A stretch of 30,618 bases of DNA. Origin: a virus (Duplodnaviria > Heunggongvirae > Uroviricota > Caudoviricetes). The notes under the pieces are model-generated. The model was not told where the DNA came from and did not search any database. It saw only the letters and a program-made list of their open reading frames with translations. The stretch is taken from IMG/VR virus record IMGVR_UViG_2563366903_000024; one strand, 5' to 3'. Below are positions 6,056 to 21,826 of the stretch, in pieces (position 1 is the first letter of the stretch; each line of letters starts with the position of its first letter). A program made the position numbers and the translations under genes.

Positions 6056-8008
6056 TCATGCCGCGGCATCCGCGTTGTTCACTTCCACCTTCACACTGTC
6101 AATCAGCAGCGTATATGTCGCCGCCTTTGATATGCCTGTCAGTTGCAGTTTGTCCGCCGCCCCTGATGCCGGAGATTTCACCAGTGTGAACGGCGTCCCC
6201 CGTTTCTCATCCAGTACCGGCGTCACCTGAATGCTGTTGTTTCCGGCAAACTCAAAAGCCAGTGTGTGCCATCCGTTATCAAAGACCCCGAACGTATCCA
6301 GCTTCGCATTCGGCTTCTTGTGGTGCATCGCGTTCAGGTTCGTCGCATCCGTCTGCAGGAAGAAGGACATCAGCATGTCGTTGCCTTCCTCTGCCAGCGT
6401 CACTCCCTCCGGCAGGGACGACAACTGCCAGTAAATGCCCAGGGCAAACTGATTCGGCACCAGTGAACCCGGCAACTTAAACCGTACGCTCACACGTCCC
6501 CCCTTCTTCAGTAACTCCACTCCCTGTCCGGCTGCATCATGCTCCAGAAACCAGATGTGGTTTTCCGGTTTATTCAGTTGCAGGGCCTTACCTCCCGTAG
6601 CCCCCGCATCACTGACCACCGCTTCAGCAATGTTTTTGTTAACATTGTCTCCGCTCGCCGGTTTGTGATAATAGCGCCAGCCCTGTGATGCCAGGTCTTC
6701 GCCGGACGCCAGCAGACTCATCAGGGTTCGGTTACTGACCGGGGCTTCCGGCTCTCTCTCCGTACCTTCACCGGAGGGTCCGGTGGGCTTCACCGTATCA
6801 GGCTGTTTTCCGGTAATGAATTCAGCGGTTCTCCCGGCATGCACAAGAATCGCCGTTGCCAGACGGTCGGAAATAATCCCACGACGTGCCCATGATCCAA
6901 AATGCGTTTTACGGTCAGCCGTCGTCCAGGTTTTGGCGTCCGTTCGACCACCGGCTCCGTAATACCCAATATCCGCAACATCCGGATCTTCTGACGGCTC
7001 GTTGGTACCCACATTTCGCCCGTTTTCATCCGTCATAAACGGCACAAAGAAGATTTTTTTTGCGGATTTCGTCTTGTATGCACCATACACCGCATCGTAT
7101 TGCGAAGAATAAGTCTGCTTCCAGTAGTAGGTCGTGTCGCCACAAATCCAGGGAACCGATGACGGAGAGCCCCCGAGACACTGACCTCCGAATTCCGACA
7201 GGTCAGAACGATATTTTTCCACCATGGAATCAAACAGCCCCGGCTGACTGGCGTACGCTCCCTGTTTTAAATCAAACTCGCCCTGCATCCAGACCACTGC
7301 AAGCAGAATATTTTTAGGGTTAGCCTTCAGTGCGGCCTGAGTACGGGTAAGCAGGTCCTTGTACAGTGGCTTATCTACACCCCAGCGTGCCGAGGTCTCG
7401 CTTGCGCCGGTGGATTCGCTGAAAGTACCTTCATCGCCCGCCAAAAATGCAGAACCACCACGGCAGCACGGAACCAGAAGAATACCGGCATTCGCCGGAA
7501 TAAACGGCAACAATTTCTTCGCGATATGTAATCCCTGCCCCACGCATCCATACTGAGCTGCGCTGGCTTTCGGGTGTGAAAACTTACTCAAATCCTGAAC
7601 ATCATGCAGGCAGTGGTCCGCAGGAATAATGTCATTGTAGTTACAGGACGCACCACCCGGCGTGACAGTGCTGCGACGCGCCAGCTGTTTAATACGCGGG
7701 TCCGGACGGTCATATGTCTCCGGCAGCGGAAGCCCTTCACCATACGCCATACCGTTTGACTGCCCGGCCAGAGCGATTACGAAGTAGTATTCCGGCTCAC
7801 CGATCACTGTCTCGTTATCACCAGGTGAAGCAGGAGTGAGCACATCATTTTCACTCACGACTGGCTGAATAAATTCCGCGCCATAACCTGCTGTCGAAAT
7901 AATCGGACTGCCAAACGGCTGCCAGCCTTCCTTCAGTTTTTGTGTCAGTCGCTCCGCAAGGTCTGAAGGCGAAGCAGCCCTGACCACATCATAATGTTTA
8001 AATGCCAT
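6056..8008 (-). CDS. nanS-p: SGNH-hydrolase esterase resembling prophage NanS-p sialate O-acetylesterase
   Basis: 650-aa ORF with SD GGGAGGA before the ATG and a GQSN SGNH-hydrolase motif (ALAGQSNGMAYGEG). The N-terminus (MAFKHYDVVRAASPSDLAE…) matches my recollection of the large ORF downstream of stx in Stx phages. Confidence 0.7.
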   Translation of the reverse strand: MAFKHYDVVRAASPSDLAERLTQKLKEGWQPFGSPIISTAGYGAEFIQPVVSENDVLTPASPGDNETVIGEPEYYFVIALAGQSNGMAYGEGLPLPETYDRPDPRIKQLARRSTVTPGGASCNYNDIIPADHCLHDVQDLSKFSHPKASAAQYGCVGQGLHIAKKLLPFIPANAGILLVPCCRGGSAFLAGDEGTFSESTGASETSARWGVDKPLYKDLLTRTQAALKANPKNILLAVVWMQGEFDLKQGAYASQPGLFDSMVEKYRSDLSEFGGQCLGGSPSSVPWICGDTTYYWKQTYSSQYDAVYGAYKTKSAKKIFFVPFMTDENGRNVGTNEPSEDPDVADIGYYGAGGRTDAKTWTTADRKTHFGSWARRGIISDRLATAILVHAGRTAEFITGKQPDTVKPTGPSGEGTEREPEAPVSNRTLMSLLASGEDLASQGWRYYHKPASGDNVNKNIAEAVVSDAGATGGKALQLNKPENHIWFLEHDAAGQGVELLKKGGRVSVRFKLPGSLVPNQFALGIYWQLSSLPEGVTLAEEGNDMLMSFFLQTDATNLNAMHHKKPNAKLDTFGVFDNGWHTLAFEFAGNNSIQVTPVLDEKRGTPFTLVKSPASGAADKLQLTGISKAATYTLLIDSVKVEVNNADAAA

Positions 8009-9772: not shown

Positions 9773-11734
9773 TTACTTTCCCGCAAAATTGTTTTCACCT
9801 TGTTTTTTCAGTAATTGCGAGACCTCCCATGCAAGGTAATCACCTACCGTCTTTTTGAAATCCTCCAGCGTTGGCCTAGCATCTACTGGCCTGGTCTGAT
9901 TCCAGTCCTCACCACTATCAGGATCGATTGTTCCCTCAAAATATTCATCCTCCGTAAAGATATTAAGGCAACCTTTCCCGAAGTGAACCAGATCCACAAC
10001 CTCCTGATAACGCTCTTTTGCACGATCGGCATCAACAAGATTGTTTCTTGCCTTTTTGCGATTAGAGCGAGCGTAGCCGTCATTGGAAAAGTCGATAAAC
10101 TTAACAGCCTGTTTCGCGTTATGCGGAATTTTTACCTGAAAAACGTAAATGTACGTCTGAACGCTTGATTTACCAATAAACAGATCCGCAGGCATTTTGA
10201 TGCTTGCCAGCAAGGTATTTTCCTTGAGTATTTTTTTGTTGTACTCCGTAGCCTTTCCTGTGCCAGCTGAACTCTGGATAATCACTGCAGCATAGCCTTT
10301 ATCCATCATCGACAGCGCCTTCTGCACGAAAATCATGCCGTTACCTTTAGCTGAATACGGAGGATTGAGAATAAATGCGTCCGCAGGGAATTTTTCTCCT
10401 GTTTTCCCAAATCCATACTTGCCGTCAAAATCGGCCAGCGAGTCTTTATTGAGGATATTCGAGCTACCATCCCCCATCAAAATCATATTCAGGATGGCCA
10501 GCATATAAATACTGGATAACACCTCAAGGCCAAGAAGCTGTTCAGCCTTGATTTGCGCTTCCTTAAGTTGTAGTTCGTTCGGTGAGTGAATATTTTCTCT
10601 GGCGTCAATGAGCATTTCATTCATTGCAGCCACAAGCAATCCCGCAGAACCTGTAGCAAAATCCCACACATAGGAATCTTTGTTTACTCTGGCGAGTCGT
10701 GCCAGCAATGTGGCAACATAAGGTGGTGTCAGAACGACGTCATTGAGCTTGTCCTGCGTAAATCCAAGCCAGCGATACATCTCATTAAACAGTTTGCCCG
10801 TAAAATCGGTGGTCAGTCCAATTTTGTAATACTCCCCAAGATCATCAACAACTTTAACAAACACGCGCTTTAACTGGCTTTCACCGTTGACTGGTTTGTT
10901 AATGTTTTCAGTCCACAGCGTATTTTGCAACGAGCGCAAAATCATTTCTCTTTTTGTTTCAGGAACAGCTTTCAGCCTTAAAAAATTCCTTATTTTCCTG
11001 AAAATAATATCACCATCACGCAAGTCCTCCTCCGTTGAAGAGGTCAGTTCTTTTTTATCCAGCGGTGCTAACTTTCCCGGAATCCCCAACGTTGCAATAA
11101 CGGTAGCCACAACAAGGTAAACACGATCGCTTTCACCAAGCCCCTTTTCATTCTGGTAAATATCGTTATTCAGACGGGAAAGTCGCGTGTCTATCTCTTC
11201 CTCTTTGCTGGCCTTGATTTTTTCCAGTTCTTCGGGAGGAAGATTAAGCAGCTTTATCTTGTTGAGAAATCCATCAACATTTTTGTCAGCAAGGAACGAT
11301 AAGTCGGTGAATTCACCAACCTTCTGTCCGGCTCCTAAATTATTCTTTGATACGTACCACACGCCGATTTCATGATGCAGTTCGCCTGTACCATCATCGC
11401 GCCAGCCGGTCATACCAATAGCAATAATATCAGGGTAATTGGTGAACTGAAGAAGTGCGTTGGCATAATGGACTGCGCCATTCACCGCGTATCCATTAAT
11501 ATTTTTAAAATTCCATTCTTTTCTGGCATCTTTGTTCTCAATAATACCGTTGCTGCCAAGTCTGATAAGCCTGTCCTTGTAGCCTTTATACTCGATGAGA
11601 ACGGGATACTGCTTGCCGTATTTGTCCTTAACAAGGAGTTTTACGTCGGGACGATTACCGCCTGCGCCGCCATTTTTCGAAAAATAAGCGTCCAGTGCGT
11701 TATCGATCTCTCCGTTAAGTGATGCATTCTGCAA
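9773..11734 (-). CDS. N6-adenine DNA methyltransferase with N-terminal PD-(D/E)xK-like region (BcgI-A-like); body ORF currently out of frame with its ATG
   Basis: 653-codon ORF with AdoMet motif (VWDFATGSAGLL) and catalytic NPPY motif (ILNPPYSAKG). N-terminal third has a possible nuclease motif (RPD…x16…EYK). No ATG near its 5' end; the frame is open upstream through the 7-nt repeat tract. Confidence 0.7.
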   Translation of the reverse strand: MQNASLNGEIDNALDAYFSKNGGAGGNRPDVKLLVKDKYGKQYPVLIEYKGYKDRLIRLGSNGIIENKDARKEWNFKNINGYAVNGAVHYANALLQFTNYPDIIAIGMTGWRDDGTGELHHEIGVWYVSKNNLGAGQKVGEFTDLSFLADKNVDGFLNKIKLLNLPPEELEKIKASKEEEIDTRLSRLNNDIYQNEKGLGESDRVYLVVATVIATLGIPGKLAPLDKKELTSSTEEDLRDGDIIFRKIRNFLRLKAVPETKREMILRSLQNTLWTENINKPVNGESQLKRVFVKVVDDLGEYYKIGLTTDFTGKLFNEMYRWLGFTQDKLNDVVLTPPYVATLLARLARVNKDSYVWDFATGSAGLLVAAMNEMLIDARENIHSPNELQLKEAQIKAEQLLGLEVLSSIYMLAILNMILMGDGSSNILNKDSLADFDGKYGFGKTGEKFPADAFILNPPYSAKGNGMIFVQKALSMMDKGYAAVIIQSSAGTGKATEYNKKILKENTLLASIKMPADLFIGKSSVQTYIYVFQVKIPHNAKQAVKFIDFSNDGYARSNRKKARNNLVDADRAKERYQEVVDLVHFGKGCLNIFTEDEYFEGTIDPDSGEDWNQTRPVDARPTLEDFKKTVGDYLAWEVSQLLKKQGENNFAGK

Positions 11735-16093: not shown

Positions 16094-16339
16094 TCACCGG
16101 ATTACCACATCCCACTCCGGCTCCTGCCATCTCAAATCCGGTGAATCATTTCTCTCAGGAATAACCATTACGTCCTTTTCCCTTCGCTCCCTTTCTATCG
16201 CCATCACAGCCAATGCTGTAACCATGATGTATTTTTGTTCGTCGGTTCCTGTTTCATAACGACGCATGAGGGTAAACTCGGGGCGATCAGTAACCTCAAT
16301 GATTTCGTTAATTTCTTTAATTTCGCGAGGAATATCCAT
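16094..16339 (-). CDS. Hypothetical small acidic protein (81 aa)
   Basis: ATG at 16339 preceded by GGAG. Fills the gap between the TA pair and the zinc-ribbon gene; its start codon overlaps the divergent start of the next gene within CCATGG. Confidence 0.35.
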   Translation of the reverse strand: MDIPREIKEINEIIEVTDRPEFTLMRRYETGTDEQKYIMVTALAVMAIERERREKDVMVIPERNDSPDLRWQEPEWDVVIR

Positions 16340-17012
16340 GGGTTTAGTCTCCTTTGATATCACATGCCCGCACTGTTTAAAAGAGCGAGCTGTTATTGAG
16401 GCATTTGCCGAAAAACAAATTGAAAAAACACCTTTTTTTAACGTCGCTTTTGTATGCAGAAGTTGTCATCGAGGAGGTGTTGCTATTGTTGAAATCCCAT
16501 CAGACCACTATCACGGTCCCATGGCGGAAAGCCAGAAAAAAGACCTCGATATTCTGATTTCAGGAAATAGCCAGTACCGTTTCCGCAAGATCTATCCTGT
16601 GGTCAAAAAAATTACCGCACCAGAATATACGCCCCCGGTTGCAGACCGTACTTTTGTTGAGGCAAAAGAGGATTTACAGAGGAGGCGGTACGACACAGTG
16701 GTTATTCTTTGTCGCAGAGTCCTCGATATCTCCACGAAAAAACTGCTCGGCGATGAAGCAGGAAAAGAATCGCTGTCGCAACGTATTCAGATGATTTACA
16801 AAAAAGGCCTGATCACTGAACAGATGAAGGAATGGGCTCATATTGTACGAATTGATGCCAATAAAGCAGTTCATACAGATGAAGTTTTCACACCAATTGA
16901 GGCAAGCCAGATCCTGAGTTTTACCGAAATGTTTTTAGTCTACGCCTTCACTCTGCCTGCAATGGTGGAAGCCAGACGTGAACAAAAAAGATCAGATTCA
17001 GCCTCTATATGA
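16338..17012 (+). CDS. Zinc-ribbon protein with C-terminal helical domain resembling DUF4145
   Basis: 224-aa protein with SD GAGGAA. N-terminal CPHC…(26)…CRSC zinc-ribbon pattern. C-terminal region (VVILCRRVLDISTKKLLG…IQMIYKKGLITEQMKEWAHIVRIDANKAVHTDE) matches my recollection of the DUF4145 pattern. Confidence 0.5.
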   Translation: MGLVSFDITCPHCLKERAVIEAFAEKQIEKTPFFNVAFVCRSCHRGGVAIVEIPSDHYHGPMAESQKKDLDILISGNSQYRFRKIYPVVKKITAPEYTPPVADRTFVEAKEDLQRRRYDTVVILCRRVLDISTKKLLGDEAGKESLSQRIQMIYKKGLITEQMKEWAHIVRIDANKAVHTDEVFTPIEASQILSFTEMFLVYAFTLPAMVEARREQKRSDSASI

Positions 17013-18287: not shown

Positions 18288-19028
18288 TCACATACCCTGA
18301 CGTCCAACGTTTGACCGCCAGCTCTCCCAGTTAAAATTCACCCAACGACCACCGTTCATGGTCATCCGGTCCATAATCCTCTCACCAAGAAGCGTGCTCA
18401 TTGCGGCATGATTCAGGTTTGTCAGCATCCCGACACTGCGCAGTGATGCCGTCCGGCGGTCAACAATCTGGTGCAGTACCACCTGCTCGTTTTTCGTCTC
18501 ACGCTGGATGCCAATTTCGTCAAGAACCAGGAGGTCCACTTCGCACAGTTCACGCAAAAATTTTTCCCCTGACAGTCCGTCGTCATAGCTGGCATGTAAC
18601 GCGCTCATCACATCCGCCACGGTGACCACTATCACGGATTTACCGGCCTTCAGCAGACGATTACCCACAGCCGCCGCCAGATGATTTTTTCCGGTTCCCG
18701 GATTCCCGCTGAACACGAAGTTTGTATAACCGGTCATCAATTCATCGGCAATGGATTTCGCCTGGCTCAGAGCATGGCGCTGACCGTCGTTCTGCACCCG
18801 GTAGTTCCCGAATGAGCACTTCCTGTGAAGCGGCTGGATGCCCGCACGGTTCAGGATTTTTTCAACCCGCGCCTGATGATTCAGGCGGTTAATTTCCTCG
18901 CTGCGCTTACGGCCCTCAGCCAGTTGCCATTCCCGCCATTCGTCGGTCGTCCGGAACGGTGCTGCCACGTGCGGTGGTGCCAGACGGCGCACCCGTTCAA
19001 GAATCCCTCCAGTCGAAATGTTTTTCAT
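18288..19028 (-). CDS. DnaC-like replicative helicase loader (IstB-like ATPase)
   Basis: 246-aa protein with Walker A (FSGNPGTGKNHLAAAVG) and Walker B (DLLVLDEIG), directly downstream of the O-like initiator. Confidence 0.85.
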   Translation of the reverse strand: MKNISTGGILERVRRLAPPHVAAPFRTTDEWREWQLAEGRKRSEEINRLNHQARVEKILNRAGIQPLHRKCSFGNYRVQNDGQRHALSQAKSIADELMTGYTNFVFSGNPGTGKNHLAAAVGNRLLKAGKSVIVVTVADVMSALHASYDDGLSGEKFLRELCEVDLLVLDEIGIQRETKNEQVVLHQIVDRRTASLRSVGMLTNLNHAAMSTLLGERIMDRMTMNGGRWVNFNWESWRSNVGRQGM

Positions 19029-19034
19029 GGCTGA

Positions 19035-20117
19035 TTACCCCCTGAAACCCGGCGGAATTTCGGTGTCCGGTTCAGAAATGTGATTCACGCAACGCAGGCT
19101 GACTGCGCCAGCCTTCGGCAGCGACCACGGATTTTCGAAATTCCTGTTCGGGCCAAAAAACGTCGATGCCTGCTGAACAAATTCAGTTCCCGCTTTCCCG
19201 GTAGCCTCCAGGTATCTTGCGTAACGCCTCACGCCATCCAGCACGACATCCGGTGACACCCCTTCGCGTAATCTGGCCCTCCAGGCATTGAACGCGGATT
19301 TCTTCGGGTTTGCCCCTGCCCGATGCGGATATTCACGCCAGACCCGTTCGAACACGTCAGGATAATCAACTCGTCCCGCAGACGGTCCCGGCATCGCCCG
19401 GGTTAACCCAATCGGCTTCCCGCTCATCGCGGAATCGGCTTCAGGCTGCTGCGGTTGGCGTTGTTGCTCCGGTTCGACGATCAGCACCTGCTGCACACAA
19501 CGCCCGGAATCTGCTTCCGGTGTCGTGCCAGCTGGTCCTGGACGTTCAGTCAGAACAGGACAAAAATCCCCCTGCGGGTCCGTGGCGATTTTTTCGCCAT
19601 GGACCAGAAGGGTTTTATCCCTTTCCTGTTCTTGTTCCTGTTCCTGTTCTTGGCTTGAAAGAGGCTCTGAAGGGGCTTCAATTTTCCGACATGATTCACG
19701 TCTGACATCCAGGTGGAAATCATCCTTATATCTATCATAAAAGGATGATAAAAAAGGATTTTCCAGCAACACGGAATATTCATTTCTTACCCCAGCACAA
19801 CGGTTATCGCCAGGTTTCAGCGATTCACCAACCTGCCATGCTGCCATTTCATGCACCCATACAACCTCAGAATCATGGTCATAGCTGCAAAAACCAGCCT
19901 CGCAAGCCATTTGAAGCCCCTTAGAAGCCCCTTCAGGATCAAGTCCGGTTTCGTGAGCAATGTACAAAACAGGCAGGTAATAAAGGCCCAGCATATTGGA
20001 ATGAGGCGAGGTCATCATATACAACGCCACTACCATACATTCCGGACCAGACTTCCTTAGTTTTCTCCCTGTTTCGCCTAACCAGAACTGAGGTGAAATT
20101 GTTGCGTAATTACGCAT
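19035..20117 (-). CDS. Replication initiation protein (O-like position; acidic linker with (QE)n; DnaT-like C-terminal region)
   Basis: 360-aa ORF between cII and the DnaC-like gene. Internal low-complexity linker (SSQEQEQEQEQERD…QQRQPQQPEAD). Assignment by position and architecture. Confidence 0.6.
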   Translation of the reverse strand: MRNYATISPQFWLGETGRKLRKSGPECMVVALYMMTSPHSNMLGLYYLPVLYIAHETGLDPEGASKGLQMACEAGFCSYDHDSEVVWVHEMAAWQVGESLKPGDNRCAGVRNEYSVLLENPFLSSFYDRYKDDFHLDVRRESCRKIEAPSEPLSSQEQEQEQEQERDKTLLVHGEKIATDPQGDFCPVLTERPGPAGTTPEADSGRCVQQVLIVEPEQQRQPQQPEADSAMSGKPIGLTRAMPGPSAGRVDYPDVFERVWREYPHRAGANPKKSAFNAWRARLREGVSPDVVLDGVRRYARYLEATGKAGTEFVQQASTFFGPNRNFENPWSLPKAGAVSLRCVNHISEPDTEIPPGFRG

Positions 20118-20370
20118 AGTCCCCTCGCATACAAGATTTACTCCATACCGCAGACGGTCCCGGTATCTCCCGGGTTAACCCAATCGGCTTCAGGCTGCTG
20201 CGGTTGGTGTGACTGCACATTGGTGTGACTGCACATCTTCACAGACGGTCCCGGTATCTCCGGGTTAACCCAATCGGCTTCAGGCTGCTGCGGTTGGTGT
20301 TGTTGCTGGCGAAATTCTTCCAGATGTGGCAGAATTATTCCCGTGTATTGCTCCATGCCCTGCCTGAATA

Positions 20371-20667
20371 TCAGATGTTCATCAGGATTTGCTCAGAACG
20401 TCCGGCCCCAACCGGACGTTTTTTATTTGCATGAACGTTAATGGCATGCTGGAAAGCCCGGCTGATCGGACTGATATCAGATGCCATCTGGAACGCGCAT
20501 AAAATCGCCGCGATGTATCGCCAGTCGGTACGACTGACCTTCGATTCATGGCAGCCAATCATCTTCGCCAGTCCCCTTTGCGTCAGAGCTGACAGGTTGA
20601 TAAGTAAATCCGTTTCAGCGCGATCGATATCGCGCTGTGACAGTTTGCTGTAACTTGTTTGTGACAT
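20371..20667 (-). CDS. cII: CII-like transcriptional activator
   Basis: 98-aa protein whose C-terminus (…NVHANKKRPVGAGRSEQILMNI) parallels lambda CII (…TNKKRPAATERSEQIQMEF). Lies downstream of cro. Confidence 0.75.
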   Translation of the reverse strand: MSQTSYSKLSQRDIDRAETDLLINLSALTQRGLAKMIGCHESKVSRTDWRYIAAILCAFQMASDISPISRAFQHAINVHANKKRPVGAGRSEQILMNI

Positions 20668-20735
20668 TTGTTAATTTTCCTATATTGATATGGGGTTAAG
20701 CGGCAATCCCCAATGGGTTTGCCACTGATGTTTGC

Positions 20736-20776
20736 TCACCCTGTTAGAGGTGAACGACCAGCAATGTTAAAGAGCG
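20736..20776 (-). promoter_or_regulatory. nutR candidate (boxA plus boxB hairpin) between cro and cII
   Basis: Minus strand CGCTCTTTAACATTG (boxA-like, same core as the nutL copy) followed by an imperfect hairpin with loop CTAAC. Confidence 0.5.
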
Positions 20777-20783
20777 GTGTTAC

Positions 20784-21008
20784 TTATTCAGCCTGGTTCG
20801 GATGAGGAAACAGGTGCGGTAAGTCCGGGCGAATTTCGTAAGCCTTAACCTGACCATTGGTGGCATTAACGATAGCGAAAACTTTTTCAGGAGAAACTTT
20901 TCCGCCTCGCAACCATTTATGAACAGCGGGCTGTGATACGCCGCAATCAGCTGCAAGTCGTTTTTGACTGCCAACAATATTCAAGGCTCGCTGAATCACT
21001 AAATTCAT
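20784..21008 (-). CDS. cro: Cro-like repressor
   Basis: 74-aa HTH protein (MNLVIQRALNIVGSQKRLAADCGVSQPAVHKWLRGG…) divergent from cI. SD AGAGGT before ATG 21008. Confidence 0.7.
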   Translation of the reverse strand: MNLVIQRALNIVGSQKRLAADCGVSQPAVHKWLRGGKVSPEKVFAIVNATNGQVKAYEIRPDLPHLFPHPNQAE

Positions 21009-21044
21009 GAGCATACCTCTACAGCAAATAAAGCATAACCAAAA

Positions 21045-21107
21045 ATAACATGAGTTATACACCAGGGCAATAACAATTGTTGTTTTACTTTTGATAACCG
21101 TGGTTAT
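21045..21107. promoter_or_regulatory. OR operator region (pR/pRM) with ATAAC/GTTAT inverted-repeat half-sites
   Basis: Inverted repeats ATAACatgaGTTAT (21045-21058) and ATAACCgtGGTTAT (21094-21107), plus palindrome AACAATTGTT, in the cro-cI divergent intergenic region. Confidence 0.55.
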
Positions 21108-21118
21108 AGATTACAGGT

Positions 21119-21826
21119 ATGAAAACATTCGCAGAAAGACTAAATGCCGCCATGAGTTCAGCCGGGTTGTCACAAGCACAACTTGCAGACATGGTGGGGG
21201 TATCACAACCAGCCATACAAAAGATGTCATCTGGTAAAACAACCGGATCACGTAAAATGGTCGAATTAGCCAACGCGTTAAGAGTTCGCCCTGAATGGCT
21301 AAGCTCTGGTATAGGGTCAATGAGACCACAGAGCGCAGAAGAGCCATCTAATGCTCGGGAATCATCTTTAAAAGCTATCGCCTGGGATGATCATCAAAAT
21401 GATAATGACGAATTTGTTACGCTCCCCCTTCTAAATATTTCACTTTCAGCTGGCGGAGGAAGTTGTGCATTGGAGGAGTCCGCAGAATTCTCTCTAGTTT
21501 TTAGGCGCTATTACCTGAAAAAAATGGGAGTTCCAGAAAAAGCGGCAAAGTTGGTCAGGGTTGTTGGGCAAAGCATGGAGCCAACACTCCATGATGGTGA
21601 TGTGGTGGGGGTAAACACGCAAGATACGAGCATCAGGGATGGTAAAACATATGCAATTTGCCAAGCTGATTTGTTAAGGGTAAAAACGCTCATAGCCACG
21701 CCAACATCGGTAATTATCAGATCGATAAACCGCGAAGAGTATCCTGATGAAGTAATGAACAGAGAAGAATTCTACAAAAACGTAAGAATCATAGGGCGAG
21801 TGTTCTGGTCATCACATAGCTGGTAA
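21119..21826 (+). CDS. cI: CI repressor (HTH plus LexA-like S24 peptidase domain)
   Basis: 235-aa protein with N-terminal HTH (LSQAQLADMVGVSQPAIQKM) and C-terminal autocleavage region (…GQSMEPTLHDGDVVGV…). Confidence 0.9.
   Translation: MKTFAERLNAAMSSAGLSQAQLADMVGVSQPAIQKMSSGKTTGSRKMVELANALRVRPEWLSSGIGSMRPQSAEEPSNARESSLKAIAWDDHQNDNDEFVTLPLLNISLSAGGGSCALEESAEFSLVFRRYYLKKMGVPEKAAKLVRVVGQSMEPTLHDGDVVGVNTQDTSIRDGKTYAICQADLLRVKTLIATPTSVIIRSINREEYPDEVMNREEFYKNVRIIGRVFWSSHSW

Follow-up and report, generated by a model that had tools for sequence, protein, structure and literature searches.

The replication origin of phage lambda lies inside the O gene and consists of four 18-19-bp O-binding sites and an AT-rich region. 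Accessory initiator sites are also known outside initiator genes, such as the SPP1 oriL and oriR boxes, which are bound by G38P, and the control iterons of plasmids, e.g. P1 incA. Temperate phages carry another kind of repeat, the minisatellite or variable-number tandem repeat (VNTR) duplications which, like deletions mediated by direct repeats, are driven by RecA or phage annealases through relaxed homologous recombination, and phage annealases and recombinases of the class to which RecT belongs can recombine short, diverged homologies (PMC3945230). We compared with these systems a repeated element of the virus record IMGVR_UViG_2563366903_000024, a stretch of 30,618 nucleotides (the window in what follows) that is part of a lambdoid, Stx-phage-like prophage with integrase, a RecT/YqaJ module, cI, cro and cII. 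A segment of about 60-93 bp from the linker-coding part of the initiator gene (source copy at 19376-19468) occurs twice more between cII and the initiator start (20148-20207 and 20242-20307). The original prediction had offered two accounts of these upstream copies: extra initiator-binding or replication-control sites, on the grounds that lambdoid origin iterons lie within the O linker, or a recombination scar. Our analysis favours the second account. The upstream copies are probably the scar of an ectopic duplication of initiator linker DNA, specific to one lineage and since maintained and resized through homologous recombination, and not an origin.

The repeat search and the exact extents of the copies agreed that the repeat is real. 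In gene orientation, the element reads CAACCGCAGCAGCCTGAAGCCGATT followed by GGGTTAACCCGGG(A/C)GAT(A/G)CCGGGACCGTCTG. The intragenic copy (19376-19468, minus strand), which encodes ...QQRQPQQPEADSAMSGKPIGLTRAMPGPSAG..., has 23 extra bases between the two halves; this insert, which has the short direct repeat AATCGGCTTC (GAAGCCGATT in gene orientation) on either side, is missing from the upstream copies. The proximal upstream copy (20148-20207, minus strand), nearest the initiator start codon, has CCCGGG, and its homology to the gene reaches through ...GTCTGCGG. The distal copy (20242-20307, minus strand) has one base less (CCGGG), and its homology to the gene runs to the left, as read in gene orientation, through GCAACAAC. 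Owing to this single-base difference between the upstream copies, one spacing is 91 nt and the other 90 nt. The 90-bp unit is made of the element, GTGAAGA and two 16-bp units. The latter (TTGGTGTGACTGCACA on the plus strand, annotated on the minus strand) form the junction between 90-bp units at 20204-20235, and both were found perfect by the repeat search and by Tandem Repeats Finder (TRF). Their tandem duplication had been recognised in the original prediction but placed 8 nt too low (20196-20227), while the other repeat coordinates given there were correct. The upstream copies share a 41-nt stretch of 100% identity (20170-20210 and 20260-20300), the intragenic and proximal copies a 49-nt match at 92% (19376-19424 and 20148-20196), and a 30-nt repeat family starts at 19379, 20151 and 20242; such matches are far above chance for 3.5 kb. 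Between the cII stop and the array lies a unique leader of 63 nt (20308-20370, minus strand), for which no second occurrence was found in the window or in 130 fetched loci.

The arrangement is not peculiar to the window. It is base-for-base alike, bar 1-2 substitutions (98-100% identity), in phages POCJ13, 75/02 Stx, PhiR5_2 and phiSTEC1589-Stx1c, which were sequenced independently, and it was found in 78-82 of 5426 complete E. coli genomes, O104:H4 strains among them. With the roughly 30 IMG/VR contigs that also carry it, the four phages and the ~78 genomes rule out a single-isolate assembly artefact. The element is nevertheless confined to one lineage. A genome-per-species scan detected it in no other species, with a single chance match in Candidatus Electronema. 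In the other 69 distinct members of the N-domain family, true iterons were all that the upstream region had in common with the gene, with no linker copies upstream; nor did L016-L025, the nearest relatives (about 70% amino-acid identity), have an upstream copy.

Related loci were then scored for variants by locating both halves of the element and the 16-bp unit. Two upstream units are the majority state (the window, the four phages and 25 IMG/VR stretches), one unit is found in L005, L012, L096, L099, L111 and L112, and three units are found in L009 and in the variant represented by protein P0001. Locus L007 carries three upstream units of 113 bp, which include the 23-bp insert. Internal units always lack one G (CCCGG for CCCGGG). 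The number of 16-bp units varies as well, a form with more of them being represented by protein P0002 (88 aa). In L007 the three upstream copies and the intragenic copy all have CCTGATGCC, whereas all copies of the window lineage have CCTGAAGCC; a lineage-specific state common to upstream and intragenic copies indicates that the copies exchange sequence. In L006 we observed a clean loss from an upstream copy to the intragenic copy, which removed the initiator N-domain and left what RefSeq lists as a pseudogene. The array thus shows head-to-tail units of high identity (90/91 bp, with the 41-nt core at 100%), unit-number polymorphism among close relatives (1, 2 or 3 units and the 113-bp-unit variant), and both concerted evolution (L007) and repeat-mediated deletion (L006), as minisatellites do. 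Genes for a RecT-family annealase and a YqaJ exonuclease are present in the same phage. The recombination scar that had been put forward as an alternative fits what is seen: copy number is polymorphic, a deletion derivative exists and the element is limited to one lineage.

The DNA that was duplicated comes from the least constrained part of the module. Alignment of homologues confirmed that the intragenic copy falls within a linker that is flanked by two conserved domains. The element is part of a module made up of this linker and the C-terminal domain, and the module is found behind another N-domain, with other iterons, as well: Escherichia phage Tritos and L008 have linker and C-domain DNA that is about 82% identical, including the element homologue, but N-domains of the 'replisome organiser' type. 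Deletions between adjacent GAAGCCGAT repeats were seen in L008, in L016 and in the window's own upstream copies. About 60 nt of the window linker (19390-19450, compared with L130:2370-2440) are moreover frame-shifted by a 1-nt deletion and a later 1-nt insertion relative to Tritos and L016, so that the second GAAGCCGATT encodes KPI and not EAD. This compensated frameshift indicates that the linker peptide is unconstrained.

The most likely course of events is the following. The first upstream copy would have arisen once, through illegitimate or unequal recombination. It then became a 90-bp minisatellite whose unit number, as natural variants show, changes between 1 and 3 by homologous recombination or slippage. 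Occasional gene conversion, seen in one diverged lineage, keeps the copies similar to the intragenic one, and recombination with the intragenic copy from time to time deletes the intervening 772 bp and kills the initiator, as one prophage (L006) shows. The last upstream copy could presumably not be removed by homologous recombination without losing the initiator N-domain and the origin; if so, its universal retention needs no function. The array would be carried passively, and transcribed, in a pR-type early-right operon, and it creates a short, apparently unconstrained open reading frame (ORF).

Several observations weigh against this duplication-scar account. Nucleotide diversity (pi), computed by region among 24 haplotypes, was 0.001 in the unique leader, 0.002 in the array, 0.006 in the C-domain, 0.007 in the N-domain, 0.013 in the intragenic copy, 0.027 in cII, 0.028 in the rest of the linker and 0.082 in the loader gene. 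Leader and array are therefore the least diverse parts of the module, which is not expected of freely decaying junk, although segregating sites (5/230 versus 13/420) did not differ significantly and the counts are few. Recent origin, hitch-hiking or gene conversion could each account for the low diversity of the array. No close relative lacking the array was found: 78 genomes have this N-domain allele, 78 have the array, and every inspected locus has at least one unit. The 1-nt deletion of internal units holds the 90-bp units in frame, so the short ORF stays open in the 1-, 2- and 3-unit forms. The array and the intragenic copy bracket the candidate origin described below at similar distances (212 and 188 bp). 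Finally, blastn-short searches against the window and all loci revealed no source for the 63-nt leader and the 16-bp units, and the founding event could not be reconstructed.

Low array diversity and a frame-preserving 90-bp unit are compatible with functional copies. The upstream linker copies, or a linker-mimic peptide encoded by them, might tune replication, for instance by binding the C-terminal/DnaT-like module of the initiator or a host factor, a proposal that we consider unlikely. If it held, unit number (1-3) would be a heritable dial on initiator expression or origin firing. The ORF at 20138-20356 (minus strand, 72 aa, phrog_2751; 18 unique codons followed by repeats) might be a real small protein, a linker mimic competing for a partner or a protease, or its translation alone might couple ribosomes from cII to the initiator start. 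This is unlikely, even though all four phage records list the ORF as a hypothetical protein and it has a phrog of its own. It shares the frame of the initiator in the QPQQPEAD segment, it remains open at 42, 72 or 102 aa with one, two or three units, and it stops 20 nt ahead of the initiator start, its stop lying, in two frames, at most 20 nt from the initiator ATG or overlapping it. Against a conserved gene, its homologues amounted to 10 clusters in 5.8 billion proteins, all from E. coli, with lengths of 42, 46, 51, 58, 62, 72, 76, 88 and 102 aa in several frames. The first ~29 residues are common to the clusters, which then diverge by unit number and frame. Natural variants switch frame or are truncated (P0004, P0008, P0009 and P0010), and in L007 the ORF ends after 41 codons. 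The window and L007 differ by four substitutions in the 18 unique codons, every one of them non-synonymous, a small sample for judging selection. The Shine-Dalgarno context of the ORF is weak. Neither the ORF nor the initiator belongs to a Pfam or NCBIfam family, apart from the DnaT-like tail of the latter, and the ORF matches only its orphan phrog. Homologues outside the lineage and a stable length and frame are thus lacking, and ORF 20138-20356 appears to be largely a by-product of the copies and not a conserved gene, largely in keeping with the original prediction that it is an artefact of them. A possible ATGGAG microhomology between ORF start and ORF end was seen by eye only and is not claimed.

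To place the origin, 80 loci with initiator relatives were fetched, and the 72 non-identical genes among them were used for motif counts. A family-wide motif, AAGGGGCTTC (extended consensus T(C/T)GAAGGGGCTTC, 11-bp phase), is present at about nt +184/+195 of almost every homologous gene (49-98% amino-acid identity) and again at about +427 to +473, and many loci have a third pair shortly before the start codon (-39/-28). We counted 304 instances within -60..+500 of the 72 genes as against 17 in 343 kb of flanks. In the window, candidate cluster 1 (19910-19936, minus strand) holds two 11-bp-phased CTGAAGGGGCTTCTAAGGGGCTTC copies in gene orientation, in the N-domain coding part, at codons 62-68 (EGASKGL). 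Candidate cluster 2 (19656-19682, plus strand) holds one good and one degenerate copy at the boundary between N-domain and linker and is inverted with respect to cluster 1 in this lineage. Both clusters, which recur at these positions in L010-L089, were also detected by the repeat search as inverted repeats I1/I4, and TRF reported 11-bp phasing only at 19913-19933. Cluster 2 is inverted in 50 loci and direct in 20, and depending on the orientation the encoded peptide is EAPSEPL-like or EGASKGL-like. When 62 genes were aligned by codon, normalised synonymous entropy was 0.5-1.0 at all conserved residues except codons 62-68, where it fell to 0-0.3 (GAA 100%, GGG 98%, GCT 89%, AAG 100%, GGG 92%, CTT 94%); synonymous entropy so close to zero points to selection at the DNA level. 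Cluster 1 falls in the codons of the helix predicted to occupy the recognition position (residues 61-73). Between the clusters lies the AT-rich minimum, a candidate unwinding region (19700-19799; GC 0.37 over 100 nt, and 0.27 over 60 nt around gene nt 332), with a 13-nt inverted repeat at 19719-19749. Candidates for the iterons and the AT-rich element that the original prediction proposed to look for lie at 19656-19936 and not in the element. The origin most likely consists of the paired 11-bp-phased AAGGGGCTTC clusters flanking the AT-rich dip, which would be read by the winged-helix N-domain. No literature on this element or on the AAGGGGCTTC iterons was found in searches on the motif, on POCJ13/Diegovirus replication and on Rac oriJ, although the searchable literature is incomplete.

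Several side observations concern this region. Directly after cluster 2 in nearly all family members, whatever the host GC, comes a (GAACAG)n run, which in the window (19618-19655) encodes QEQEQE and whose unit number varies in close relatives to give genes of 358, 360 or 362 aa. The IMG/VR relative L015 has three cluster-1 iterons instead of two (L015:2685-2717, gene nt 184-216); the extra 11 bp shifts the frame and leaves a 103-aa ORF, so that iteron slippage has inactivated its host gene. The Tritos initiator has phased (T/C)GTCACG(A/C) repeats of its own, likewise arranged as two clusters, with five copies at L130:2636-2684 and another three at 2906-2944.

With a candidate origin placed elsewhere in the gene, it is improbable that the upstream copies act as extra initiator-binding or replication-control sites, be it as accessory titrating or 'handcuffing' iterons or as a second origin. 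The copies do flank the candidate origin near-symmetrically, 212 bp upstream of cluster 1 and 188 bp downstream of cluster 2, and the low diversity of the array would suit a binding site. Upstream sites exist in the family too, true iterons being found at -39/-28 in some relatives. The GAAGCCGATT present in each copy fits 8 of the 10 positions of the inverted iteron GAAGCCCCTT, but both mismatches hit the invariant GGGG/CCCC core. Likewise, all seven GAAGCCNNTT of the 30.6-kb window fall within 19410-20281 (1.3 expected), yet four of the seven are copies of one another. On a position weight matrix (PWM) of the family built from the 304 iterons, no position of the element scored above 0.4 bits, whereas the three iterons reached 19-24 bits, the matrix being partly circular as only matches with no more than one mismatch had gone into it; as the same site as the family iterons, the element was rejected on this score. 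Instead of several short helically phased repeats, the intragenic copy has GAAGCCGATT twice, 23 bp apart, and each upstream copy has it once. Nor does the element co-vary with the N-domain: it is absent or unalignable in most of the 72 homologues, whereas AAGGGGCTTC follows the N-domain, and it travels with the C-terminal module behind another N-domain whose gene has TGTCACG phased repeats. The linker copy, with its indels and compensated frame changes, shows no constraint at the DNA level, in contrast to codons 62-68. Copy number varies freely between 1 and 3, and the 69 other family members do without upstream linker copies. The inference that a linker copy marks origin iterons, and the upstream copies extra initiator sites, is not supported, in view of the different family motif at 19910-19936 and 19656-19682, the PWM score and the presence of the module behind a different N-domain. 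The element is probably not an initiator-binding site.

The array is very unlikely to be a cis-regulatory RNA or DNA element (the upstream sequence of an oop-like promoter, an RNA structure for initiator translation or a transcription signal for origin activation): its position on the promoter side of an oop-like transcript with a terminator conserved with lambda, its low diversity and the short palindromes of its unit (GGGTTAACCC and CCCGG-N6-CCGGG) are outweighed by the lack of a sigma-70-like promoter in or beside it on either strand, RNA folding that does not surpass that of shuffled sequence (z = -0.27 over 276 nt, -1.81 over a single unit), the absence of any Rfam family reaching threshold, and a free copy-number variation that speaks against a dosage-sensitive element.

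The surroundings of the array are those of a lambdoid early region. Along the minus strand, cro (20784-21008) is followed by cII (20371-20667), the 72-aa ORF, the initiator (19035-20117), an IstB/DnaC-like loader gene (18288-19028) and a DUF1627 gene. The oop-like antisense unit spans 20363-20424 on the plus strand, with an intrinsic terminator (20395-20422, plus strand) that is antisense to the cII 3' end and homologous to the lambda oop terminator; placed by this terminator, the array lies where lambda has just a spacer of about 30 bp. A promoter scan of 19000-21200 gave a single weak site, in cII, and the oop-like promoter was not located by eye either. At E <= 1, Rfam returned only a sub-threshold full-length AgvB match on the oop-like terminator (20.5 bits versus a 56-bit cut-off). 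The loader gene is by far the most diverse of the module (pi 0.082 versus <= 0.028 elsewhere), and this value amid otherwise near-identical haplotypes indicates a mosaic boundary at the initiator/loader junction. The replication module is followed downstream by accessory genes for a DUF4145 protein, encoded on the opposite strand (16266-17012, plus), a 653-aa N6-adenine methylase-domain protein (9773-11734, minus) and a DUF1737/SASA-esterase/DUF6645 protein typical of Stx-phage late regions (6056-8008, minus).

The initiator itself (360 aa, minus strand) comprises a winged-helix N-domain (about residues 1-140), a low-complexity linker, a C-domain and a DnaT-like C-terminal tail. It had no Pfam match even at E <= 10 and does not satisfy the Phage_rep_O family model, and its PHROG label is phrog_1701, 'DnaD-like helicase loader'; 'O-like' therefore describes only the position and role of the gene and not family membership. 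The N-domain was modelled as a winged helix (pLDDT 89). This predicted DNA-binding fold, the phased repeats with their AT-rich region and the adjacent IstB/DnaC-like gene are those expected of a winged-helix origin-binding initiator. Residues 336-360 (19035-19110; CVNHISEPDTEIPPGFRG...) weakly match the E. coli DnaT C-terminus (NCBIfam and PDB 2ru8, 6aep and 9zbt; E ~0.01), which suggests that the phage initiator may mimic the DnaT tail to recruit helicase or its loader.

The locus would provide a natural example of the unconstrained linker of a modular phage initiator being duplicated, resized and at times destroying its gene by repeat-mediated deletion. For annotation, it is a warning: both phrog_2751 and the 'hypothetical protein' encoded between cII and the initiator gene are probably by-products of the repeats. 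Unit number could serve to type the Stx-phage-related replication module, which E. coli O104:H4 genomes carry too. The more useful lead is the origin, as the analysis locates, for a widespread initiator family without a Pfam match, the probable origin at AAGGGGCTTC iterons inside predicted recognition-helix codons.

Compared with the systems described at the outset, the element resembles the lambda ori iterons, annotated at 39034-39118 inside O in the lambda record, in that it sits in the middle of a lambdoid initiator gene, after cII and before the helicase-loader gene. Unlike them, it is a single long segment without phased internal repeats, co-variation with the N-domain or conservation at the DNA level, and the lambda-ori-like features of this gene are the AAGGGGCTTC clusters at 19656-19936. 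As with the SPP1 boxes and P1 incA-type sites, sequence of the initiator gene is repeated outside the gene near the origin, but there the repeated unit is the binding site of the initiator, whereas the array unit has no family iteron motif; where relatives have upstream sites, these are true iterons. The initiators of Tritos (TRITO_36) and of E. coli OkiPb01711 (WP_411005389) share the C-terminal module, with about 82% identity of linker and C-domain DNA, and the Tritos gene has the same two-cluster iteron layout; they differ in their N-domain, their TGTCACG iterons and the absence of upstream linker copies. With the VNTR-type duplications of temperate phages the array shares head-to-tail units, a polymorphism of 1-3 units, concerted evolution, deletion between dispersed copies and a RecT/YqaJ module in the same phage. 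Judged by its sequence, the element lacks all three testable features of iterons, shows all three of minisatellites and behaves like a VNTR or duplication scar. It departs from the usual VNTR in that its unit derives from the phage's own initiator linker and, together with its source, brackets the N-domain and the candidate origin, an arrangement that would make the last copy irremovable.

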